Of a stretch of 64,000 bases of DNA, positions 25,969-45,645 are shown piece by piece. The notes beneath the pieces are model-generated. The model had not been told where the DNA came from and ran no database searches. It saw only the letters and a program-made list of their open reading frames with translations. The stretch comes from Escherichia coli (GTDB lineage: Bacteria > Pseudomonadota > Gammaproteobacteria > Enterobacterales > Enterobacteriaceae). The position numbers were made by a program, and so were the translations under genes. The DNA is taken from assembly GCF_050920415.1 (NCBI RefSeq), contig NZ_CP169309.1. One strand, 5' to 3'. Each line of letters opens with the position of its first letter. The stretch's first letter is position 1.

Positions 25969-27138
25969 TTATATTTCATTTAAAAGATCGTAATCATACG
26001 TATATTCTTTGCTAATAAAACGACACTCGTTGAAGCTAAATTCATCGTCTGAAAAGGAATTGTCAACAGAATCTCTCTCTTCCTCCAGGCTATTATCTGA
26101 AAGCAAGTCGTTTGAGTTAGTGTAATCTAGGTTGTAATCGACAGTATAATTAATTTCTGGATCGGTTTGGTAATCATTTTTTTTGACGCAATCATATTCT
26201 TCAATAATTTTGTCGATATAATCATATGCTTTTTCTAATGAGAAGTTTTTCATCTCTGGTAATTTAACTTTGCTCAAATAATTATTAATTTTTGAGGAAT
26301 TTTTATATATGCTTTTTGTTAATTCTTTTTCTAATTTGTCTGTTATATTTGCTGTTGGTATGGATTTTATAATCGCATATCTCATGATTTTTAATTGATC
26401 TTCGGTTAAATCTCCAAGCTCATTTAAACAACTTTCGACAAAGTTGATTTTTTCTCTGGAATAATCATCGCTGATACTTGTTAACGCTGGGGTGATTTTT
26501 AATAAAGAATTCCATGAGATAGTACCATTGTGTGTCGAACGCATAAAATTTATATTGTACATATTGGTTTTAGTAAACTTTGTTGCAAACAATGTAAAGG
26601 GATCTAAAGTCGCGTAAGCCATATGTTTATTTGAAAAATCATAACCAGTTAAATCGACGTTATGCAAGTCCAGATAGGATAAATCTATTACGTCGCCTGC
26701 TCCAGAGCTAAAGATTACATTTAGTCTTCTGATTTCATTATAAATTTCCTTTAATGAACAATTTATGTTCATGATGTCTGTTGAAATTTTTTTGTTATTT
26801 AACGGTTCACAAATTATAAGTTCGCAAGTATTGTCTGATCGTTGCGTTATTTGGGCATTATAACCTAAAAAGTCTATGCGAAGAGACGAGTTATTATAAA
26901 GTATTACATTTTTTAAGTATGCTAATTCTTGTTGAAAATCACCATCGATAATACATGTTCCACCTGGTTGCAACGCGCAGATTAACGTGAGCATTTGATT
27001 AGAAGTCTGTTTTAGTTTTACTACACCTGGTGCTAGTGCTTTGAGGTCATTTATTATGGGGGTTTCAGGAATGTCATTCATTTTTATACGTACTAAATCA
27101 TTACCTAAGTCATTACCTATTGATGAAACCGGGAACAT
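25969..27138 (-). CDS. yhaC: Uncharacterized protein YhaC (pentapeptide-repeat-like central region, acidic D/Y/E-rich C-terminus)
   Basis: 389-aa ORF in a strongly AT-rich segment; synteny between rnpB and tdcR. Confidence 0.75.
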   Translation of the reverse strand: MFPVSSIGNDLGNDLVRIKMNDIPETPIINDLKALAPGVVKLKQTSNQMLTLICALQPGGTCIIDGDFQQELAYLKNVILYNNSSLRIDFLGYNAQITQRSDNTCELIICEPLNNKKISTDIMNINCSLKEIYNEIRRLNVIFSSGAGDVIDLSYLDLHNVDLTGYDFSNKHMAYATLDPFTLFATKFTKTNMYNINFMRSTHNGTISWNSLLKITPALTSISDDYSREKINFVESCLNELGDLTEDQLKIMRYAIIKSIPTANITDKLEKELTKSIYKNSSKINNYLSKVKLPEMKNFSLEKAYDYIDKIIEEYDCVKKNDYQTDPEINYTVDYNLDYTNSNDLLSDNSLEEERDSVDNSFSDDEFSFNECRFISKEYTYDYDLLNEI

Positions 27139-27159
27139 TATTTTATCCTTTTTAAATAA

Positions 27160-27729
27160 TCAATGAGAATCATGATTAAAATGATCTGGTGAAAAAAAGA
27201 GAATTTGCCAACAATCTGAAACATTGTCAGTTTTATTAAAATGATTAAATTCCGTTAAGATAACTTCTTTTTGCGTGAACTTTGCGCAAAACTTAAAAAT
27301 TGTCTCCTTGATACACTCCAGATCTTTTCTATTGATGGCTGAACAAGTACATTTTTCGCCAAAAGGTGAAAATGTGCCTACATCTAAAGTTTGTATTATA
27401 TAATCATCATTTACTCCTGTAGAAATATCTATGATGAATGGACTTCTATTTTCCGGTTGGATTCGGATCATTACAGAAGAAACATCACCTTTATAGACAT
27501 TCAATGCAGTAATCGCAGATAATATTCTCCGCAATTCATTGCTTATGCTGTAAATTTCATTAACGTCATTTGTCGATATAATCTCGGCAAATTTTATTTT
27601 TACCTTCCAATAATCAATGTTTCTATTATAAGTGTTAACAGTTTCGTACATTGGTGGTATCGAAGGGGGTAAAAAATGTGAAACCGAATAACCTTTCATT
27701 GATGCCTGCCTTGTCTTCATGACAAACAA
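27160..27729 (-). CDS. yhaB: Uncharacterized protein YhaB
   Basis: 189-aa ORF 21 bp downstream of yhaC, AT-rich; synteny. Confidence 0.7.
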   Translation of the reverse strand: MFVMKTRQASMKGYSVSHFLPPSIPPMYETVNTYNRNIDYWKVKIKFAEIISTNDVNEIYSISNELRRILSAITALNVYKGDVSSVMIRIQPENRSPFIIDISTGVNDDYIIQTLDVGTFSPFGEKCTCSAINRKDLECIKETIFKFCAKFTQKEVILTEFNHFNKTDNVSDCWQILFFSPDHFNHDSH

Positions 27730-27937
27730 TAATCAATGCTTATTTTCCTTGCACGGTTCGCTCACAACTATCAAAAAACGCTCAATTACCCGGCATTACA
27801 GTCAACGAAGCAAAATTCTGTGGTCTACAACGATGTAAAGCACAACGAAAATCCTCCTTGTTCTCTTATTCTGATCGTATAGCGATGAACATCAATTATT
27901 CGTTTTGTGATCCTCAACACAAAATGCTATTTAGTAA

Positions 27938-28312
27938 CTATGGTGACAGTAGAAACGAGGGGAAACGATTGCATTCACAAAATGACGTCCTGTAAGAAGG
28001 GTGAAAGTTGATGTTAATCAATTGTTCGAGATGATCAATATCTGTATTCGAAATTTTAAAACATTGATAAAATAAATGTTTGCCCTCCAACAAATAGCGA
28101 GAAAAAATGTGACGTGCCGCATTATTTATCGCTGAAAATGATTTATTTATAATAAAATTTGATAACTTGCTCATAAAATTTAACTCAAAATTTGCCTGGT
28201 AATTATCCGCTAATTGCTTGAAATATGGTCGCGGCTGCTTTTTTTTATTAACCACATAACGAATGATGTTATCGCCATAAAATATGGTTATCCCTGTCAT
28301 TTTTTTTGACAA
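27938..28312 (-). CDS. tdcR: Putative small regulator TdcR (start uncertain, true product may be shorter)
   Basis: AT-rich ORF divergent from tdcA; position matches tdcR. Confidence 0.5.
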   Translation of the reverse strand: MSKKMTGITIFYGDNIIRYVVNKKKQPRPYFKQLADNYQANFELNFMSKLSNFIINKSFSAINNAARHIFSRYLLEGKHLFYQCFKISNTDIDHLEQLININFHPSYRTSFCECNRFPSFLLSP

Positions 28313-28488
28313 AAATCAGGGTTTATGCTGATTTATATACTTTAACTTATTGATATATAAAAGAATTTAATTGATACAGTGATATCCAGAAAAGTATTGA
28401 AAGTTAATTTGTGAGTGGTCGCACATATCCTGTTCATTTCATTTTGATACACTTCATGCCGTCAATGAGGTTATTAACGTAGGTAGTT
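28313..28488. promoter_or_regulatory. tdc operon promoter region (tdcR-tdcA divergent intergenic)
   Basis: AT-rich 176-bp region immediately upstream of tdcA. Confidence 0.5.
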
Positions 28489-29427
28489 ATGAGCACTATT
28501 CTTCTTCCGAAAACGCAGCATCTGGTAGTCTTTCAGGAAGTCATTAGAAGTGGCTCTATCGGCTCGGCTGCAAAAGAATTAGGGTTAACTCAACCCGCCG
28601 TCAGTAAAATCATTAACGATATTGAAGACTATTTTGGTGTGGAATTAGTGGTGCGGAAAAATACCGGTGTAACATTAACACCTGCCGGTCAATTGTTACT
28701 CTCCCGTTCCGAATCCATTACCCGTGAAATGAAAAATATGGTTAATGAGATAAGCGGTATGTCTTCTGAGGCGGTGGTGGAAGTCTCATTCGGTTTTCCT
28801 TCATTGATTGGTTTTACTTTTATGTCCGGGATGATCAACAAGTTCAAAGAGGTGTTTCCGAAAGCGCAGGTTTCTATGTATGAAGCGCAACTGTCTTCGT
28901 TCTTACCGGCAATCCGCGACGGTCGACTGGATTTTGCGATTGGTACGTTAAGCGCAGAAATGAAGCTTCAGGATTTACATGTTGAGCCGCTGTTCGAGTC
29001 CGAGTTTGTGTTGGTAGCCAGTAAGTCCCGAACATGCACCGGCACCACCACGCTGGAGTCGTTGAAGAACGAACAGTGGGTGTTGCCACAAACCAATATG
29101 GGGTACTACAGCGAGCTGCTCACCACGTTACAAAGAAATGGCATCAGTATTGAAAACATCGTTAAAACCGACTCAGTTGTGACAATTTATAATCTTGTTC
29201 TCAATGCTGATTTCTTAACTGTAATTCCTTGTGATATGACATCACCTTTTGGTTCAAATCAATTTATTACTATTCCGGTTGAAGAAACATTACCTGTGGC
29301 ACAATATGCCGCGGTATGGTCGAAAAATTATCGTATTAAAAAAGCAGCATCGGTTTTGGTGGAATTAGCCAAAGAGTATTCATCTTATAATGGGTGTAGA
29401 CGAAGGCAATTAATTGAAGTTGGTTAG
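28489..29427 (+). CDS. tdcA: LysR-family transcriptional activator TdcA
   Basis: 312-aa ORF, N-terminal HTH (LysR type). Confidence 0.9.
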   Translation: MSTILLPKTQHLVVFQEVIRSGSIGSAAKELGLTQPAVSKIINDIEDYFGVELVVRKNTGVTLTPAGQLLLSRSESITREMKNMVNEISGMSSEAVVEVSFGFPSLIGFTFMSGMINKFKEVFPKAQVSMYEAQLSSFLPAIRDGRLDFAIGTLSAEMKLQDLHVEPLFESEFVLVASKSRTCTGTTTLESLKNEQWVLPQTNMGYYSELLTTLQRNGISIENIVKTDSVVTIYNLVLNADFLTVIPCDMTSPFGSNQFITIPVEETLPVAQYAAVWSKNYRIKKAASVLVELAKEYSSYNGCRRRQLIEVG

Positions 29428-40532: not shown

Positions 40533-41234
40533 CTAGACAGGCAAATCTATCAGCAAAGCGCGCAGTGGGGAATCGGCAACCAGCGTAATGTTAGCCTCGT
40601 CACGAATAAACGCCCCATCACCGCAGGTCAGCACCGCTTTCTCTTCATGATGCGTAAGCGCATGAAATTGCCCGTGAATCGATTGCAAATACGCGCGTGG
40701 CCCATGCAACTGGAAATTCGCACTTTCGCCTTTGTCTAGCACGATATGATGCAGCCACACTTGCTGGCGCAACTGCAGGCTTCCCATCGCCCCCTCTGGC
40801 GAGGCGATTAATTGCTGCTTGCCCATATCAAGCGCCAGTTTTTGAATCAGCGGATTCTCTCGCTGCGGGCAGGCATCCAGCCAAAGCTGCATCCGTGTTA
40901 ACGGTTTGTCTTTGCTGAGATTGTGTTCGCTATAGCTGATACCCGGCTGGGTAGAGAGCAGCAACGCTTCACCTGCGTAGGCCTGAATATGATTGCCTTC
41001 GCTGTCGCGATACTCAGCTTCTCCATCCAGAATCACATTTAAAATATCGACTTTGGGATAGGTTCGTGGCTGAAAGGCGGCACCTGGGGCCAGAACTTCC
41101 TGGTTAAGCACACGCAGGGAGGCATAACCTAACAATTTCGGGTCGAAGTAGTGTCCAAAGGAAAAAGTATACCGGGCCTGCAACCATCCGTAGTCTGCTT
41201 GTCCACACTGCCTGGCAGTTCGGGTAGTAATCAT
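40533..41234 (-). CDS. yhaK: Pirin-like bicupin protein YhaK
   Basis: 233-aa ORF divergent from yhaJ. Confidence 0.88.
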   Translation of the reverse strand: MITTRTARQCGQADYGWLQARYTFSFGHYFDPKLLGYASLRVLNQEVLAPGAAFQPRTYPKVDILNVILDGEAEYRDSEGNHIQAYAGEALLLSTQPGISYSEHNLSKDKPLTRMQLWLDACPQRENPLIQKLALDMGKQQLIASPEGAMGSLQLRQQVWLHHIVLDKGESANFQLHGPRAYLQSIHGQFHALTHHEEKAVLTCGDGAFIRDEANITLVADSPLRALLIDLPV

Positions 41235-41338
41235 AATTCTTGACCTCTCTTTACTTCCTTTTATGGTAAGGGGCTGGACGCTACATTGTTAGCCAGATAT
41301 TCTGCCCGGTATGTTCAAATTTCCTGAATGAGAACGAA

Positions 41339-42235
41339 ATGGCCAAAGAAAGGGCATTAACGCTGGAAGCACTACGGGTTATGGATGCGATCGATCGCCG
41401 GGGCAGTTTTGCGGCGGCGGCGGATGAGCTGGGACGCGTGCCTTCCGCACTTAGCTACACCATGCAAAAACTGGAAGAAGAGCTGGATGTGGTGTTGTTT
41501 GACCGCTCGGGCCATCGCACCAAATTCACCAATGTCGGGCGAATGTTGCTGGAGCGAGGGCGCGTTTTGCTGGAAGCCGCAGATAAACTGACTACCGATG
41601 CGGAAGCCCTCGCGCGCGGTTGGGAAACGCATCTCACCATTGTGACTGAGGCGCTGGTACCGACACCCGCCTTTTTCCCGTTAATCGACAAATTGGCGGC
41701 AAAAGCCAATACCCAACTGGCAATCATCACTGAAGTGCTGGCAGGGGCGTGGGAACGGCTGGAGCAGGGGCGGGCGGATATTGTTATCGCGCCGGATATG
41801 CATTTTCGCTCCTCGTCGGAGATCAACTCGCGCAAACTCTATACCTTAATGAACGTCTATGTTGCCGCGCCAGATCACCCGATTCATCAAGAGCCAGAAC
41901 CGCTCTCTGAAGTGACGCGTGTGAAATATCGTGGTATTGCGGTGGCGGATACCGCTCGTGAGCGCCCGGTATTGACCGTACAGCTGCTGGACAAACAGCC
42001 GCGCTTAACGGTGAGTACAATTGAAGATAAACGTCAGGCGTTACTGGCGGGGCTTGGCGTGGCGACGATGCCGTATCCGATGGTTGAAAAAGATATTGCG
42101 GAAGGACGGTTGCGTGTCGTCAGCCCGGAATCGACCAGCGAGATCGATATTATTATGGCCTGGCGTCGTGACAGTATGGGGGAAGCGAAATCCTGGTGTC
42201 TGCGGGAAATACCCAAACTTTTTAGCGGAAAATAA
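41339..42235 (+). CDS. yhaJ: LysR-family transcriptional regulator YhaJ
   Basis: 298-aa ORF with N-terminal LysR HTH. Confidence 0.88.
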   Translation: MAKERALTLEALRVMDAIDRRGSFAAAADELGRVPSALSYTMQKLEEELDVVLFDRSGHRTKFTNVGRMLLERGRVLLEAADKLTTDAEALARGWETHLTIVTEALVPTPAFFPLIDKLAAKANTQLAIITEVLAGAWERLEQGRADIVIAPDMHFRSSSEINSRKLYTLMNVYVAAPDHPIHQEPEPLSEVTRVKYRGIAVADTARERPVLTVQLLDKQPRLTVSTIEDKRQALLAGLGVATMPYPMVEKDIAEGRLRVVSPESTSEIDIIMAWRRDSMGEAKSWCLREIPKLFSGK

Positions 42236-42285
42236 TATTTGTTATTTTTAATAAAAAGGGGCGAAATATCGCCCCAATTCTAAGA

Positions 42286-42642
42286 TTAATTTGAACCAAA
42301 CTTCGGATCGTTTCCGTAACGATTGCTGCCAGAATTGCCTTCTAAACAGGCAAATACAAACAGAACTAACCAGCCAATGACCGGTACCAGATAGAGAAGC
42401 GCCCACGCACCTGAACGGTCAGTATCGTGCAGACGACGAACGCACAGAGCAATGACCGGAATGATTGTTGCTGCCAGGTAAATGAGAGAAAGGAATGGAA
42501 ACTCTAAACCTAAAATCAATTGAATGACATTGATAATAGCGCCGACGATGGCGTTAATCAGAGTAAACATCCAGTACTCTTTACGACGTGCACGACCAGA
42601 GAAACCAACATAATTTTTTAATACGGCTAAATACCACTGCAT
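42286..42642 (-). CDS. yhaI: Inner membrane protein YhaI (DUF805)
   Basis: 118-aa ORF; paralogous to yhaH (shared YLKVLKNYVGF..GRARRKEYWMF motif). Confidence 0.85.
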   Translation of the reverse strand: MQWYLAVLKNYVGFSGRARRKEYWMFTLINAIVGAIINVIQLILGLEFPFLSLIYLAATIIPVIALCVRRLHDTDRSGAWALLYLVPVIGWLVLFVFACLEGNSGSNRYGNDPKFGSN

Positions 42643-42883
42643 AAAAACATCCCTTTAATTAAAAGTTGCGAAAGTCTATTCCGGGGATGGAGTAAATGCT
42701 ATTCGTATCTTTCTTTTTCGGATGTTATAAAGGTTTTGATATTTAAGATAAATACATGGCCGTTTTTTATATGTAATTTATATAACGACATTGAAATAAT
42801 TTAAATAAACATTAGTAGATTATTTATTCATCAACATGATGATAAAAGCCGGATGAGTCAGACATCCGGCGAGGAGATTTGTT

Positions 42884-43249
42884 TTAAGGTTCCAGTTTTG
42901 GATCTGGTCCAAAGCGGTTTTCGCCTGGCGTACCCGCCTGACAGTTAAAGACGATGATAATAAGCCAGCCGATAAACGGGATTAAGAACAACAGTGCCCA
43001 CCATGCCGAGCGGTCGGTGTCGTGCAGGCGGCGGAACTGAACTGCCCACCATGGTAAAAACACCAGAATACCGTAGATTGTCGTCAGGATGCCTTCGCCA
43101 CCGGCACGTTGCCAGCCTAACATTTTATCCAGTAGCCCCAGCACGAACGTAAAGATGATGTTGACCAGAATAAACATCCAGTACTCTTTGCGCCGCGCAC
43201 GACCCCGGAAACCGACATAATTTTTTAGTACTTTCAGATACCAGTCCAT
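42884..43249 (-). CDS. yhaH: Inner membrane protein YhaH (DUF805)
   Basis: ORF 42884..43270 trimmed to MDWYLKVLKNY... Confidence 0.85.
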   Translation of the reverse strand: MDWYLKVLKNYVGFRGRARRKEYWMFILVNIIFTFVLGLLDKMLGWQRAGGEGILTTIYGILVFLPWWAVQFRRLHDTDRSAWWALLFLIPFIGWLIIIVFNCQAGTPGENRFGPDPKLEP

Positions 43250-43380
43250 TTTTGCCTCAATTTTGCTCAATCACTTGTTTTTAAAGCAGCAAATTAAGAA
43301 TAGACGTGAATGAAATGGCAGTAAATATTATCTCGATGAATTAATAAGGCGCTGTGAAGGATAAGGGCAAGCGCAAAATT

Positions 43381-43490
43381 GCCAGATGCGCTACGCTTAT
43401 CTGGCCTGCGCGGTCATTGCAATATATTGAATATACAATGTTTTGTAGATCAGATAAGGCGTTCACGCCGCATCCGACATGAACAACACG
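43381..43490. repeat. REP/BIME element
   Basis: GCCAGATGCGCTACGCTTATCTGGCCTGCG and GATAAGGCGTTCACGCCGCATCCGACA REP units. Confidence 0.85.
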
Positions 43491-43532
43491 CACTTAGCTA
43501 ATTATCAGAGGCACCTCGTAAGGTGCTTTTTT

Positions 43533-44519
43533 TTAACCGAAGCGAACATCTCGTCCGTGCGGTTCATCGAGATCCTGCCACGGACCAATTGAAATAATCC
43601 CCGTAGGGTTGATGGTCTTATGGCTGCGGAAGTAGTGATTACGGATGTGAGCGAAATTGACGGTTTCGGCAATCCCTGGCATCTGGTAGATATCGCGCAG
43701 GAAGCCGTACAAGTTAAGGTAATCGCTGATACGGTGCTTATCGCACTTGAAGTGGGTGACATACACCGGATCAAAACGCACCAGTGTGGTCCACAGGCGA
43801 ATATCGGCTTCGGTTAGCTGGTTGCCGGTCAGGTAACGATGCTGACCTAAAATCTGTTCCAGCCGCGCCAGCGATTCAAACACTTTCACCACTGCCTCGT
43901 CGTAGGCTTGCTGGCTGGTGGCAAAACCGGCTTTATACACGCCATTGTTAACGGTGTCGTAAATCCAGCCGTTAAGTTCGTCAATTTTCGGTTGCAGGGC
44001 TGGTGGGTAGTAATCTCCAGCTTTCGCACCCAGCGCATCAAACGCGGTATTGAACATGCGTATGATTTCTGCTGATTCGTTGCTGACGATGGTGTGGTTC
44101 TTTTTGTCCCACAGTACGGGAACAGTAACTCGTCCGCTGTAGTGTGGATCGGCGTGGAGATAAAGCTGATACAGAAATTCATGTTGATAGAGCGTGTCGC
44201 CGGTTGCTCCCGGAAAACTGTCATCAAAGGTCCAGCCGTTTTCCAGCATCAGCGGGTTCACTACGGAAACGGAAATAAACGGTTCCAGTCCTTTGAGCTT
44301 ACGCATGATCAGTGTGCGGTGCGCCCACGGGCAGGCGAGTGAAACATAGAGATGATAACGATCTTTCTCTGCGGCAAAACCGCCTTTGCCAGTGGGGCCT
44401 GGCGCGCCATCGGCAGTGAGCCAGTTACGAAATGCGGAAGCTGAACGTTGAAATTTACCGCCGGTGGATTTGGTATCGTACCAGGTGTCATGCCAGACGC
44501 CGTCAATCAGTTGACCCAT
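43533..44519 (-). CDS. yqjG: Glutathionyl-hydroquinone reductase YqjG (Xi-class GST)
   Basis: ORF 43533..44702 trimmed to MGQLIDGVWHDTWYD with GGAGG RBS; the upstream in-frame extension runs through REP sequence. Confidence 0.9.
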   Translation of the reverse strand: MGQLIDGVWHDTWYDTKSTGGKFQRSASAFRNWLTADGAPGPTGKGGFAAEKDRYHLYVSLACPWAHRTLIMRKLKGLEPFISVSVVNPLMLENGWTFDDSFPGATGDTLYQHEFLYQLYLHADPHYSGRVTVPVLWDKKNHTIVSNESAEIIRMFNTAFDALGAKAGDYYPPALQPKIDELNGWIYDTVNNGVYKAGFATSQQAYDEAVVKVFESLARLEQILGQHRYLTGNQLTEADIRLWTTLVRFDPVYVTHFKCDKHRISDYLNLYGFLRDIYQMPGIAETVNFAHIRNHYFRSHKTINPTGIISIGPWQDLDEPHGRDVRFG

Positions 44520-44540
44520 TTTTCTCTCCTCCAATAGCAA

Positions 44541-44565
44541 AAACGAGGAGCGTTTCTCCTCGTTT
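44541..44565 (-). terminator. Hairpin with T-tract (minus strand) between the REP cluster and the yqjG RBS
   Basis: AAACGAGGAG-N5-CTCCTCGTTT stem-loop. Confidence 0.5.
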
Positions 44566-44587
44566 GAGACTGATGGCAAACGCAAAA

Positions 44588-44690
44588 CTGCCTGATGCGC
44601 TATGCTTATCAGGCCTACGAGGTTTCTGCAATGTATTGAATTTGCATGTTTTTGTAGGCCGGATAAGGCGTTCACGCCGCATCCGGCATG
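44588..44690. repeat. REP/BIME element
   Basis: CTGATGCGCTATGCTTATCAGGCCTAC and GTAGGCCGGATAAGGCGTTCACGCCGCATCCGGCA. Confidence 0.85.
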
Positions 44691-44716
44691 AACAACGCGC
44701 ACTTTGTCAACAATCT

Positions 44717-44746
44717 GAAACGAGGAGTGTTCCCCCTCGTTTTTTA
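44717..44746. terminator. Hairpin with flanking A- and T-tracts downstream of yqjF (possibly bidirectional)
   Basis: GAAACGAGGAGTGTTCCCCCTCGTTTTTT. Confidence 0.5.
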
Positions 44747-44766
44747 TCGTTAAGTATAGCGCGTAC

Positions 44767-45159
44767 TTACCACTTTTTATTCAACAGACGGTCGATGCTA
44801 TACGCGCCCGGACCGGTAATCGCCAGCAGCAGGAATCCGCCAGAAATAGTCAGGTTTTTCATAAACATCAGCGAGTTCATGCCTTCTGCAAAATTGCTGT
44901 GAAATAAAAATGCCGTCAGCAGCGTAAAGCCCGCAGTAAACAGGGCAGTGGTACGTGTCAGGAAACCGAACAGGATTGCCAGACCACCACCAAACTCAAG
45001 CAGAATCACCAGTGGCAACATAAAGCCAGGGACACCCATCGCTTCCATATATTGTTGCGTACCCGCGTAGCCAGTAATTTTTCCCCAACCTGCCGTAATA
45101 AACAGAATCGGCATTAAAATGCGTGCGACCAGTACCCCAACATCTTCTAATTTTTTCAT
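44767..45159 (-). CDS. yqjF: DoxX-family inner membrane protein YqjF
   Basis: ORF 44767..45249 trimmed to MKKLEDVGVLVARILMP... Confidence 0.85.
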   Translation of the reverse strand: MKKLEDVGVLVARILMPILFITAGWGKITGYAGTQQYMEAMGVPGFMLPLVILLEFGGGLAILFGFLTRTTALFTAGFTLLTAFLFHSNFAEGMNSLMFMKNLTISGGFLLLAITGPGAYSIDRLLNKKW

Positions 45160-45316
45160 CTTACTCTCCACTGCGCCGCTCAGGCTGCTGATTGTTTTTT
45201 TGTGCAAGGGCGCGGTATTAGCGTCGTTGCTTTCGATGGAGAGAATCATAAACGTGGCGAAGCGTGATTGTTAGCAAGGAAAACTGTCAAATATTTTCAA
45301 AAAATTTGAGGAATAA

Positions 45317-45335
45317 GGCCGGAATGTCTCCGGCC
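45317..45335 (-). terminator. Stem-loop downstream of yqjK
   Basis: GGCCGGA-ATGTC-TCCGGCC hairpin followed by a T-rich tract on the minus strand. Confidence 0.5.
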
Positions 45336-45345
45336 AGAGAGGAAG

Positions 45346-45645
45346 TTAACCGCGAAGCTGTTGTTGCTTGAGGGTTGTTTTCACCAGACGCCAGGCGCTC
45401 CATACACCAAAACCGCGTCTGGCCCAGCGGACCAGCATATTGGGATGACGAATCGTCCAGATAGCCATCACACTACTGCCAACCAGCGCCCAGGAGCGCA
45501 GACTCAGCAGCATATTCCAGCGACGATCATAAGCGCCTGTCGCCTCCAGCCATTCACGACGACTGGCGGAAAGATCCAGCCGTTGTTGCTGGATCTGGCT
45601 AAGCAGTTGCGCCTTACGTCGTTCACGTTCGACTTTACTGCTCAC
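45346..45645 (-). CDS. yqjK: Uncharacterized protein YqjK
   Basis: ORF 45346..45783 trimmed to GTG start at 45643-45645 (VSSKVERERRKAQ...) with GGAGG RBS; overlaps the yqjE stop. Confidence 0.75.
   Translation of the reverse strand: MSSKVERERRKAQLLSQIQQQRLDLSASRREWLEATGAYDRRWNMLLSLRSWALVGSSVMAIWTIRHPNMLVRWARRGFGVWSAWRLVKTTLKQQQLRG

Follow-up and report, generated by a model that had tools for sequence, protein, structure and literature searches.

The Escherichia coli DUF805 gene yhaI is probably an old accessory paralogue of yhaH rather than a fresh local duplicate

Introduction

Escherichia coli K-12 carries two small neighbouring genes, yhaH (b3103) and yhaI (b3104), in the order yqjG-yhaH-yhaI-yhaJ. 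Both were still uncharacterised in a 2024 review of the y-ome (PMC11551758). A YhaH-GFP fusion has been found at the membrane (PMC3225971), and two Stephanstirmvirinae phages reportedly need YhaH in order to infect (bioRxiv 10.1101/2024.11.29.626071).

The orthologue in Salmonella, YhaH (STM3234), occupies the same yqjG-yhaJ slot and is 89-90% identical to the E. coli protein. It is a validated target of the small RNA SdsR, which represses it; it has its own 5' leader and is under post-transcriptional control, and the protein increases towards stationary phase (PMC5137417). This pairing is known for the Salmonella yhaH leader. Unlike the locus studied here, the two Salmonella enterica subspecies that we sampled, arizonae and diarizonae, lack yhaI. 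Over-production of CpxR in K-12 raised yhaI 3.2-fold in arrays and 40.3-fold by qRT-PCR, and the array study grouped yhaH, yhaI and yhaJ as CpxR-modulated (PMC2731931). In O157:H7, Ler activates yhaI 36-fold, and the same study describes the gene as not lying on a mobile element (PMC3891560). These data on regulation come from K-12, O157:H7 and Salmonella, which carry the other of two yhaI alleles described below or no yhaI.

The name yhaI has also been used for a Klebsiella pneumoniae species marker in LAMP assays (PMC8864245). We reject this DUF805-type inner-membrane gene as a yhaI orthologue and regard it as a name collision produced by automatic annotation: the yqjG-yhaJ slot of K. pneumoniae holds yhaH only, and the published LAMP primers encode an RRMHDIG variant of the family's loop motif (PMC8864245).

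Here, we describe the yhaH/yhaI pair in a 64,000-nucleotide stretch of an E. coli genome (contig NZ_CP169309.1), referred to below as the window.

Results

E. coli strain MFDS1022581 matches the window at 100% identity, and K-12 has its genes in the same order, yhaK-yhaJ-yhaI-yhaH-yqjG-yqjF, and at the same spacing. The initial annotation had recognised yhaI and yhaH as tandem DUF805 paralogues, and two ORFs on the minus strand bear this out: yhaI (42286..42642, 118 aa, 43% GC, RefSeq WP_001198783.1, hereafter the window-type allele) and yhaH (42884..43249, 121 aa, 50.5% GC). The range given there, 42286-43270, begins correctly and ends too far out, at a TTG-extended ORF; the conserved yhaH start is the ATG at 43249 (MDWYL...), in agreement with RefSeq and every orthologue, with a GAGG ribosome-binding site 8 nt 5' of it. 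The convergent neighbour yhaJ, which encodes a LysR-type regulator (41339..42235, plus strand), forms the right edge of the variable slot and is separated from yhaI by 50 bp. In RefSeq, too, the slot between yqjG and yhaJ holds this pair, under the labels yhaH and yhaI/DUF805. These are E. coli genes that are already annotated, and there is nothing new in the pair as such.

YhaH is 100% identical to its K-12 counterpart. The N-terminal motif and the RRLHDTDRS segment earlier quoted as common to YhaI and YhaH are present letter for letter, and the similarity is not confined to them but spans the full length of the proteins, with 63 of 118 positions identical (53%; 66% positives, E=2e-44, BLASTP). 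Both match the Pfam profile PF05656 (DUF805) well above its gathering threshold of 25.7 bits, YhaI with 108.9 bits over profile positions 1-110 of 111 and YhaH with 120.9 bits over positions 1-111. Both also carry the family signature, which consists of GRAxRxEYW within the N-terminal segment and RRLHD within the loop that follows helix 2. Across an alignment of 64 sequences, the pair among them, residues R17, R20, W24, P62, R69, R70, H72 and D73 are invariant; those that fall outside the helices belong to this N-terminal segment or to that loop. Moreover, dozens of unrelated DUF805 cluster representatives show 44-58% identity to YhaI, about the level that YhaH shows. The motifs that the two proteins share are thus the consensus of the whole family and are therefore uninformative on whether the pair arose recently.

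AlphaFold2 (AF2) confidently predicts YhaI as a bundle of three long helices and a short N-terminal helix (pLDDT 91.9; helices 20-44, 50-73 and 78-99, the last kinked at P87). The model superposes over roughly 70 residues on three-helix membrane subunits such as NuoK/ND4L and MrpC. NCBIfam and PADLOC searches returned no match above cut-off. YhaH and YhaI are small polytopic DUF805 inner-membrane proteins with three hydrophobic helices.

Across species, yhaH directly adjoins yhaJ in 74 of the 80 Enterobacteriaceae loci sampled, one per species; a second copy was found in four, and two could not be judged. Counting one-copy against two-copy loci, a check proposed with the initial annotation, thus yields mostly yhaH alone and speaks against a recent local duplication. 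E. albertii also has a single copy, yhaH, in the yqjG-yhaJ slot. In our reading, yhaH is the core gene of a conserved yqjF-yqjG-yhaH-yhaJ-yhaK neighbourhood, and yhaI an accessory paralogue.

Genes of the yhaI type occupy the same slot in Citrobacter rodentium, C. amalonaticus, C. sedlakii, Superficieibacter electus and Intestinirhabdus alba, where they adjoin yhaJ as in E. coli and encode proteins of 119 aa. Superficieibacter has three tandem DUF805 genes, unlike the E. coli pair, and Intestinirhabdus has the yhaI-type gene only, yhaH having been lost or never having been there. The identity of YhaI to its yhaI-type counterparts reaches 60-64% in some Citrobacter, Superficieibacter and Intestinirhabdus, against 53% to YhaH of its own genome; across all these genera it spans 58-64%. 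Orthologues of YhaH in other genera share 69-90% identity with it. When E. coli is compared with the three two-gene Citrobacter species, YhaH is 85-89% identical and YhaI 58-60%. In a neighbor-joining (NJ) tree, the yhaI-type sequences group together apart from the clade of YhaH, although this yhaI clade of a 118-residue protein is recovered in just 17 of 60 bootstraps and the trees are star-like. A bootstrapped NJ tree with 58 distant representatives was likewise star-like and did not place YhaI relative to YhaH.

Within E. coli, 4,406 of 5,426 complete genomes carry yhaI and about 1,012-1,020 (about 19%) do not. A single-gene junction was found in 1,012 of these genomes, including ATCC 11775, NU14 and an O25b:H4 strain, which presumably belong to phylogroup B2. 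Single-gene E. coli, E. albertii and Escherichia sp. E1V33 have this junction in common, together with a terminator and a YhaH C-terminus (LEQE) that differ from those of the two-gene state. In two-gene genomes, the variable part is a low-GC segment of about 650 bp (42237..42887, 37% GC, in surroundings of about 51% GC) that takes in the last codon and the terminator of yhaH, then the spacer, and then yhaI with its own terminator. In single-gene E. coli and E. albertii it is replaced by a terminator region of about 40 bp. We found no integrase or transposase ORF and no direct or inverted repeats flanking the segment. A search for a donor of the E. coli yhaI segment found none, and its flanks have no visible recombination tract.

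The single-gene state looks ancestral in Escherichia. Because of its species distribution, its absence from part of E. coli and its closer relatives elsewhere, yhaI is therefore best read as an old, fast-evolving, AT-rich accessory paralogue on a low-GC segment. On this reading, the conserved flanks would have let homologous recombination bring yhaI into the remaining E. coli, without any duplication of the yhaH already there, and yhaI would have arrived between yhaH and yhaJ along with an AT-rich promoter region and a terminator of its own.

The strongest alternative is that yhaH was duplicated in tandem in an early ancestor of the Enterobacteriaceae and that both copies descended vertically, with independent losses of yhaI and with yhaI evolving about three times faster than yhaH. 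It would explain why yhaI-type sequences cluster together and why, in every genus that has one, the gene lies between yhaH and yhaJ in the same orientation. It would also fit the likeness of E. coli and Citrobacter in spacer size (217-241 bp, 28-30% GC) and in the ribosome-binding-site and promoter block. However, it requires many clean, independent losses, given the 74 loci in which yhaH stands directly beside yhaJ. The common single-gene junction, with its other terminator and C-terminus, resembles an undisturbed ancestor and not a set of deletions, and the GC content of the segment sets it apart from its surroundings. Because the trees are star-like and the yhaI clade weak, we still allow such an ancient duplication with many losses some chance, while considering it rather unlikely.

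As a separate observation, E. coli has yhaI in two discrete forms. What sets these alleles apart is an internal block of 180 bp (42331..42510, minus strand, codons 45-104), the flanking codons being nearly identical. Compared with the K-12-type allele, the block has about 71% nucleotide identity, a dS of 1.45 and a dN of 0.20. YhaI in the window is 85% identical to K-12 YhaI, and all amino-acid differences but one fall within codons 45-104. The window-type allele does not bear the gene name yhaI in RefSeq. Gene conversion was considered as the source of the block and rejected, neither allele being notably nearer to YhaH (48% vs 53%), and no second genomic donor locus was found in E. coli.

The two genes are separated by a spacer of 241 bp (42643..42883) with 29.9% GC, in line with the AT-rich spacer of the initial annotation. 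It falls within the lowest 1.2% of 241-bp windows by GC content (50.6% for the whole window) and contains the yhaH terminator and the yhaI promoter region. The three Citrobacter spacers are AT-rich too (28-30% GC). By blastn across genera, a 138-nt match of 68% identity joins two of the Citrobacter spacers, and otherwise only short blocks are shared. Each gene had been credited with an AT-rich upstream region of 240 bp. This holds for yhaI but not for yhaH, whose upstream intergenic region (43250-43532) measures 283 bp and has 40% GC. Only its proximal 100 bp, the 5' leader (43250..43349), are AT-rich (30% GC); the rest has 46% GC and contains a hairpin beside the yqjG stop and a pair of REP-like palindromes (43381..43478; 43381-43409 on the plus and 43445-43478 on the minus strand) that are not AT-rich. 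An Rfam scan of 41000-45500 found no match within the spacer and, near yqjG/yqjF, only REP-derived sRNA models, among them a weak naRNA4 match at the palindromes.

A strong intrinsic terminator hairpin is predicted 13 nt past the yhaH stop codon (42848..42870, minus strand; GCCGGATG...CATCCGGC followed by UUUUAUC; -15 kcal/mol, z -4.6, 0/200 shuffles), and yhaH transcription would stop there. A second predicted hairpin, in the gap to yhaJ, follows yhaI (42258..42275, minus strand; GGGGCGATATTTCGCCCC followed by a U run; -16.3 kcal/mol, z -3.65). For yhaI, cross-genus alignment suggests a candidate -10 element, TAGACT (42673..42678, minus strand), within a conserved promoter-like block 5' of yhaI-type genes; all these genera have a similar ribosome-binding-site and -10 block upstream. 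TAGACT aligns with TGnTATATT and TATACT of Citrobacter and Superficieibacter at an equal distance from the ATG (about 30 nt), and yhaI may start from this putative weak promoter. A consensus sigma-70 scan reported no site in the spacer, the candidate TAGACT included; its sole match lies between the two REP-like palindromes.

We read yhaH and yhaI as separate, probably monocistronic units. The suggestion that the copies are regulated separately is well supported by the predicted terminator between them and by the different regulators published for each (PMC5137417, PMC2731931, PMC3891560). The two genes could instead form one operon, with the spacer as an internal regulatory region and the products as an obligate hetero-oligomer. 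Cooperation between units is suggested by the many DUF805 proteins with 2-4 tandem DUF805 units per chain, and yhaH, yhaI and yhaJ are listed together as CpxR-modulated (PMC2731931). Such tandem proteins also imply that the N- and C-terminus of a unit face the same side. However, yhaJ lies on the opposite strand, so that this 'operon' listing is not structural evidence, and an AF2 model of a natural two-unit DUF805 protein is confident for the units but not for their packing against each other (pTM 0.51). Together with the strong predicted terminator after yhaH, the solitary yhaH of most species and of about 19% of E. coli, and the solitary yhaI-type gene of Intestinirhabdus, this makes a single operon improbable.

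The two units have a single direct repeat in common, the first 96 coding nucleotides, which are 79% identical between yhaH and yhaI. Over these 32 codons, pS is 0.46, about the level seen between yhaH orthologues of different genera (0.45-0.69). The repeat is thus explained by amino-acid conservation, and such a pS signals neither recency nor gene conversion, which we reject for the 5' ends. No duplicated non-coding flanks and no repeat junction were found between the yhaH and yhaI units. The initial annotation took the pair for a local gene duplication, and a duplication of yhaH that took place recently in the E. coli lineage, with the new copy diverging fast, would indeed fit two adjacent genes of the same orientation with 53% full-length identity and a 5' repeat, but it is very hard to sustain when YhaI is closer to the yhaI-type proteins of other genera, the shared motifs are family consensus, the 5' synonymous divergence is as large as between genera and the flanks are not duplicated.

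Discussion

Taken as a whole, we consider it probable, though far from certain, that yhaH and yhaI are separate units that split long ago, and that E. coli gained yhaI by recombination, together with a silenced but inducible promoter. Here, low GC (37% in the segment and 30% in the spacer, against 50.6% in the window) goes together with variable presence among strains, as would be expected of a horizontally acquired, AT-rich islet under H-NS and Ler control. From base composition and the response to Ler, the regulation pattern of yhaI fits an AT-rich promoter silenced in the manner of H-NS. CpxR control of yhaI may be indirect. In the spacer, a search for the CpxR box GTAAA-N5-GTAAA found no full match; the only site (42805-42819) has two mismatches, which is chance level.

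What the two proteins do can be addressed only tentatively. The invariant residues could form one charged face on the cytoplasmic side that binds a partner or an anionic ligand, with YhaI as a stress-induced isoform of a constitutive YhaH, a suggestion that we hold as possible but doubtful. More speculative still, and in our estimation a long shot, YhaI might be a normally silenced isoform, inducible by envelope stress or Ler, that, once induced, joins YhaH in a DUF805 oligomer or takes its place there and so alters an inner-membrane property exploited by phages. If this were true, phage-driven balancing selection would maintain the presence and absence of yhaI, its two alleles and the saturated synonymous divergence within 180 bp.

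The locus also carries a caution about method. Adjacency and common motifs are no evidence for recent duplication when the motifs are a family signature. At 50% identity, DUF805 falls into more than 28,000 clusters. For E. coli itself, the locus amounts to a natural experiment with three haplotypes, in which strains have no yhaI or either of two sharply different alleles. These haplotypes offer a test ground for the published leads, namely the effects of CpxR and Ler on yhaI, that of SdsR on yhaH, and the phage requirement for yhaH.

Gene map and paralogy

The genes of this region of the window are yhaK (40533-41234, − strand; pirin family protein), yhaJ (41339-42235, +; LysR-type regulator), yhaI (42286-42642, −; 118 aa, DUF805), yhaH (42884-43249, −; 121 aa, DUF805), yqjG (43533-44519, −; glutathionyl-hydroquinone reductase) and yqjF (44767-45162, −; a DoxX family protein of 130 aa according to RefSeq), in the orientation opposite to that of K-12. 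E. coli MFDS1022581 is 100% identical over 42200-43560, a stretch that is matched in 5,422 of 5,426 complete genomes of the species. The yhaH/yhaI pair is already known and annotated, and both genes were still uncharacterised in a 2024 review of the y-ome (PMC11551758).

The tandem pair described by the initial annotation is real, with two corrections, one to an end coordinate and one to upstream AT-richness. The motif strings it quoted occur exactly in the window; the yhaH end at 43270 belongs to a TTG-extended ORF, and the conserved ATG start lies at 43249. YhaI and YhaH share 53% identity over 118 residues with a single 4-residue gap (BLASTP, E=2e-44), and both match Pfam DUF805 end to end. 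Because this similarity extends beyond short motifs, the paralogy is real, and the full-length pairwise alignment answers the objection that the likeness might be limited to a short motif.

In the yqjG-yqjF gap, an Rfam match to the sRNA ES036 (CssrF), barely above threshold (38.4 against a gathering score of 37.6), and a sub-threshold naRNA4 match lie at 44611-44651 (−) and 44657-44693 (+). This gap is ~250 bp in the window strain versus ~70 bp in K-12, so the window strain carries an extra REP-type insertion.

Structure and topology of the DUF805 proteins

The AF2 model of YhaI (pLDDT 91.9) contains helices at residues 2-9, 20-44, 50-73 and 78-99, the last with a kink at the near-invariant P87/G90. 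No solved structure related by sequence was found, and NCBIfam and PADLOC searches gave nothing over cut-off. In the DUF805 alignment the invariant residues are R17, R20, W24, P62, R69, R70, H72 and D73; those not in helices sit in the N-terminal segment and in the loop that follows helix 2, a face that the positive-inside rule would place in the cytoplasm. Many DUF805 proteins (P0121-P0137 and others) carry 2-4 tandem units per chain, joined by short non-hydrophobic linkers. With three membrane crossings per unit, the orientation of successive units should alternate, yet the arginine-rich motifs are the same in each, so the tandem arrangement is hard to reconcile with a three-crossing unit. 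The AF2 model of one multi-unit protein was confident for the units but not for the packing between them (pTM 0.51).

When fused to GFP, YhaH localises to the membrane, and the fusion forms foci upon YidC depletion (PMC3225971). According to a preprint, mutation of yhaH makes strain TK001 resistant to phages PhiWec188 and PhiWec190, with sensitivity restored by complementation (10.1101/2024.11.29.626071). Our working guess, a tentative one, is that the two proteins may be forms of one small membrane adaptor, YhaH constitutive and YhaI induced by stress.

Upstream regions and regulation

Each gene had been credited with its own 240-bp AT-rich upstream region. This holds for yhaI, whose 241-bp upstream spacer (42643-42883) has 29.9% GC and ranks among the lowest 1.2% of 241-bp windows in the window. 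It does not hold for yhaH, where the gap is 283 bp at 40% GC and its distal two-thirds consists of two REP-like palindromes and a hairpin beside the yqjG stop. In that hairpin (43505-43532) the T run is found on the + strand, and the yqjG (−) strand reads as an A run; drawn this way, the hairpin would end transcription entering the yqjG 3' end, not that of yqjG itself. The largest very AT-rich tract of the window lies elsewhere, at ~26050-28500 between rnpB and tdcA, spanning tdcR and two hypothetical genes, where the GC content of 241-bp windows falls as low as 23%.

The proposal that the two genes are independently regulated is supported by terminator hairpins and by differing published regulators in other strains. 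A hairpin at 42848-42870, 3' of the yhaH stop codon, folds at -15 kcal/mol (z -4.6; none of 200 shuffles fold as well) and is followed by a U run; a second, at 42258-42275, lies 3' of yhaI (-16.3 kcal/mol). A simple promoter scan of the spacer gave no match. The 150 nt upstream of yhaI-type genes can be aligned among E. coli, three Citrobacter species, Superficieibacter and Intestinirhabdus, and these sequences share a AGGGATGTTT-type ribosome-binding region and a -10-like block whose spacing from the ATG is constant: TAGACT for E. coli (42673-42678), TGnTATATT for Citrobacter and TATACT for Superficieibacter. From this conservation we infer that the block is a candidate yhaI promoter.

Among the validated targets of the sRNA SdsR is Salmonella yhaH (STM3234), whose protein climbs towards stationary phase (PMC5137417). 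When CpxR was over-produced in K-12, arrays showed a 3.2-fold rise of yhaI and qRT-PCR a 40.3-fold one, about equal to that of spy (PMC2731931). A search of the spacer found no full CpxR box, so this control may be indirect. Ler is an established antagonist of H-NS at AT-rich DNA, so the composition of the 30% GC spacer would fit a putative yhaI promoter silenced by default. Among genes outside the LEE, yhaI is the one that Ler activates most in O157:H7 (36-fold; PMC3891560).

Two overlapping near-consensus CpxR-type boxes, GTAAAGAGAGGTCAA and ATAAAAGGAAGTAAA, with one mismatch each, are present on the − strand of the yhaK-yhaJ intergenic region (41240-41264). Expression of yhaJ was also modulated ~2-fold in the CpxR over-production study (PMC2731931).

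Proposed local duplication

The initial annotation took the shared motifs to indicate a local gene duplication. In a recent sense this is not supported, given the family-wide motifs, the YhaI relatives in other genera and the synonymous divergence. Aligning YhaI and YhaH with 62 other DUF805 proteins gave the consensus MxWYLxVLKxYAxFxGRARRKEYWMF...VRRLHDTxRSGWW; since the shared motifs are this family consensus, they are no proof of local duplication. The family comprises 28,107 clusters at 50% identity (E≤0.001), and YhaI shares 44-58% identity with distant representatives of these clusters, about as much as with YhaH. The sole DNA repeat between the yhaH and yhaI units is the first 96 coding nucleotides (79% identity), where pS is 0.46. 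Orthologues of yhaH in different genera have diverged to about the same extent, so neither a recent origin nor gene conversion is indicated.

We then surveyed one genome per species with YhaH as query, mapping neighbours by tblastn. All 80 loci belonged to Enterobacteriaceae. In 74, including those of Salmonella, Klebsiella, Enterobacter, E. albertii and Escherichia sp. E1V33, yhaH adjoins yhaJ across a gap of ≤220 bp that leaves no room for a gene; four (C. amalonaticus, C. sedlakii, Huaxiibacter and Lelliottia sp. WAP21) carry an extra DUF805 copy there, and two could not be assigned. The closest YhaI relatives outside E. coli (60-64% identity) occupy the same yqjG-yhaJ slot, which holds yhaH and a yhaI-type gene in C. 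rodentium, three tandem DUF805 genes of 145, 122 and 119 aa in Superficieibacter electus (locus L084, 1619-3360), and a yhaI-type gene without yhaH in Intestinirhabdus alba (locus L085, 3001-3360).

A neighbour-joining tree placed the yhaI-type proteins as a clade outside the entire YhaH clade, and the second copies of Huaxiibacter and Lelliottia, of a different type, at the YhaH clade base. With distant representatives added, the tree became a star that did not settle how the yhaI clade, recovered in 17 of 60 bootstraps, relates to YhaH. YhaI-type proteins are by far the faster-evolving: identities between E. coli and the three two-gene Citrobacter species are 58-60% for YhaI, against 85-89% for YhaH. 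The 'yhaI' LAMP marker of Klebsiella pneumoniae (PMC8864245) is a different DUF805 paralogue located elsewhere in that genome; as the K. pneumoniae slot (locus L021) holds only yhaH, the shared name is a collision.

Presence, absence and alleles of yhaI in Escherichia

Across the 5,426 complete E. coli genomes, yhaI with its spacer is present in 4,406 and the single-gene junction in 1,012; the gene and spacer are missing from ~1,012-1,020, and from E. albertii and Escherichia sp. E1V33. The variable segment (~42237-42887) is 650 bp at 37% GC, in place of which single-gene genomes carry ~40 bp with a different terminator, AAGCACCTT..AAGGTGCTT (locus L002, 5960-5992), and YhaH ends in LEQE rather than the LEP of two-gene genomes. 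Single-gene genomes include ATCC 11775, NU14 and one O25b:H4 strain, which we take to be phylogroup B2.

In E. albertii and Escherichia sp. E1V33 the junction is that of single-gene E. coli (loci L004-L006, 4361-4580). The single-gene state looks ancestral in Escherichia, with yhaI gained in the remaining E. coli. An ancient duplication of yhaH/yhaI, which would call for many clean losses to leave the single-gene genomes, seems unlikely to us. For a gain of yhaI, the likeliest route would be homologous recombination by way of the conserved flanks on the yhaH and yhaJ sides, since the surroundings of the 650-bp segment contain no mobility genes and no flanking repeats. The donor would be a lineage already holding the yhaH-yhaI pair; none was found for the segment.

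E. albertii, Escherichia sp. E1V33 and E. coli SCPM-O-B-8794 also carry a REP-containing element flanked by two copies of the yhaH/yhaJ terminator hairpin (loci L004-L006, 4370-4575). It looks as if the element had inserted into the terminator and duplicated it.

Where yhaI is present, it occurs as two alleles. The window and K-12 types differ at 57 of 357 nt, 54 of them in codons 45-104 (42331-42510). This 180-bp block has ~71% nucleotide identity (dS 1.45, dN 0.20), while dS is 0.07 in codons 1-44 and codons 105-118 do not differ. The block is bimodal across E. coli genomes: 2,288 are ≥95% identical to the window, 2,077 are ~71% identical (K-12 type) and 2 fall between; a few recombinant YhaI proteins exist. 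No second E. coli locus was found as a donor of the block, and YhaH was rejected as its source, neither allele being notably nearer YhaH than the other. The haplotype structure of yhaH/yhaI in E. coli is a modest addition to what was known of the pair.
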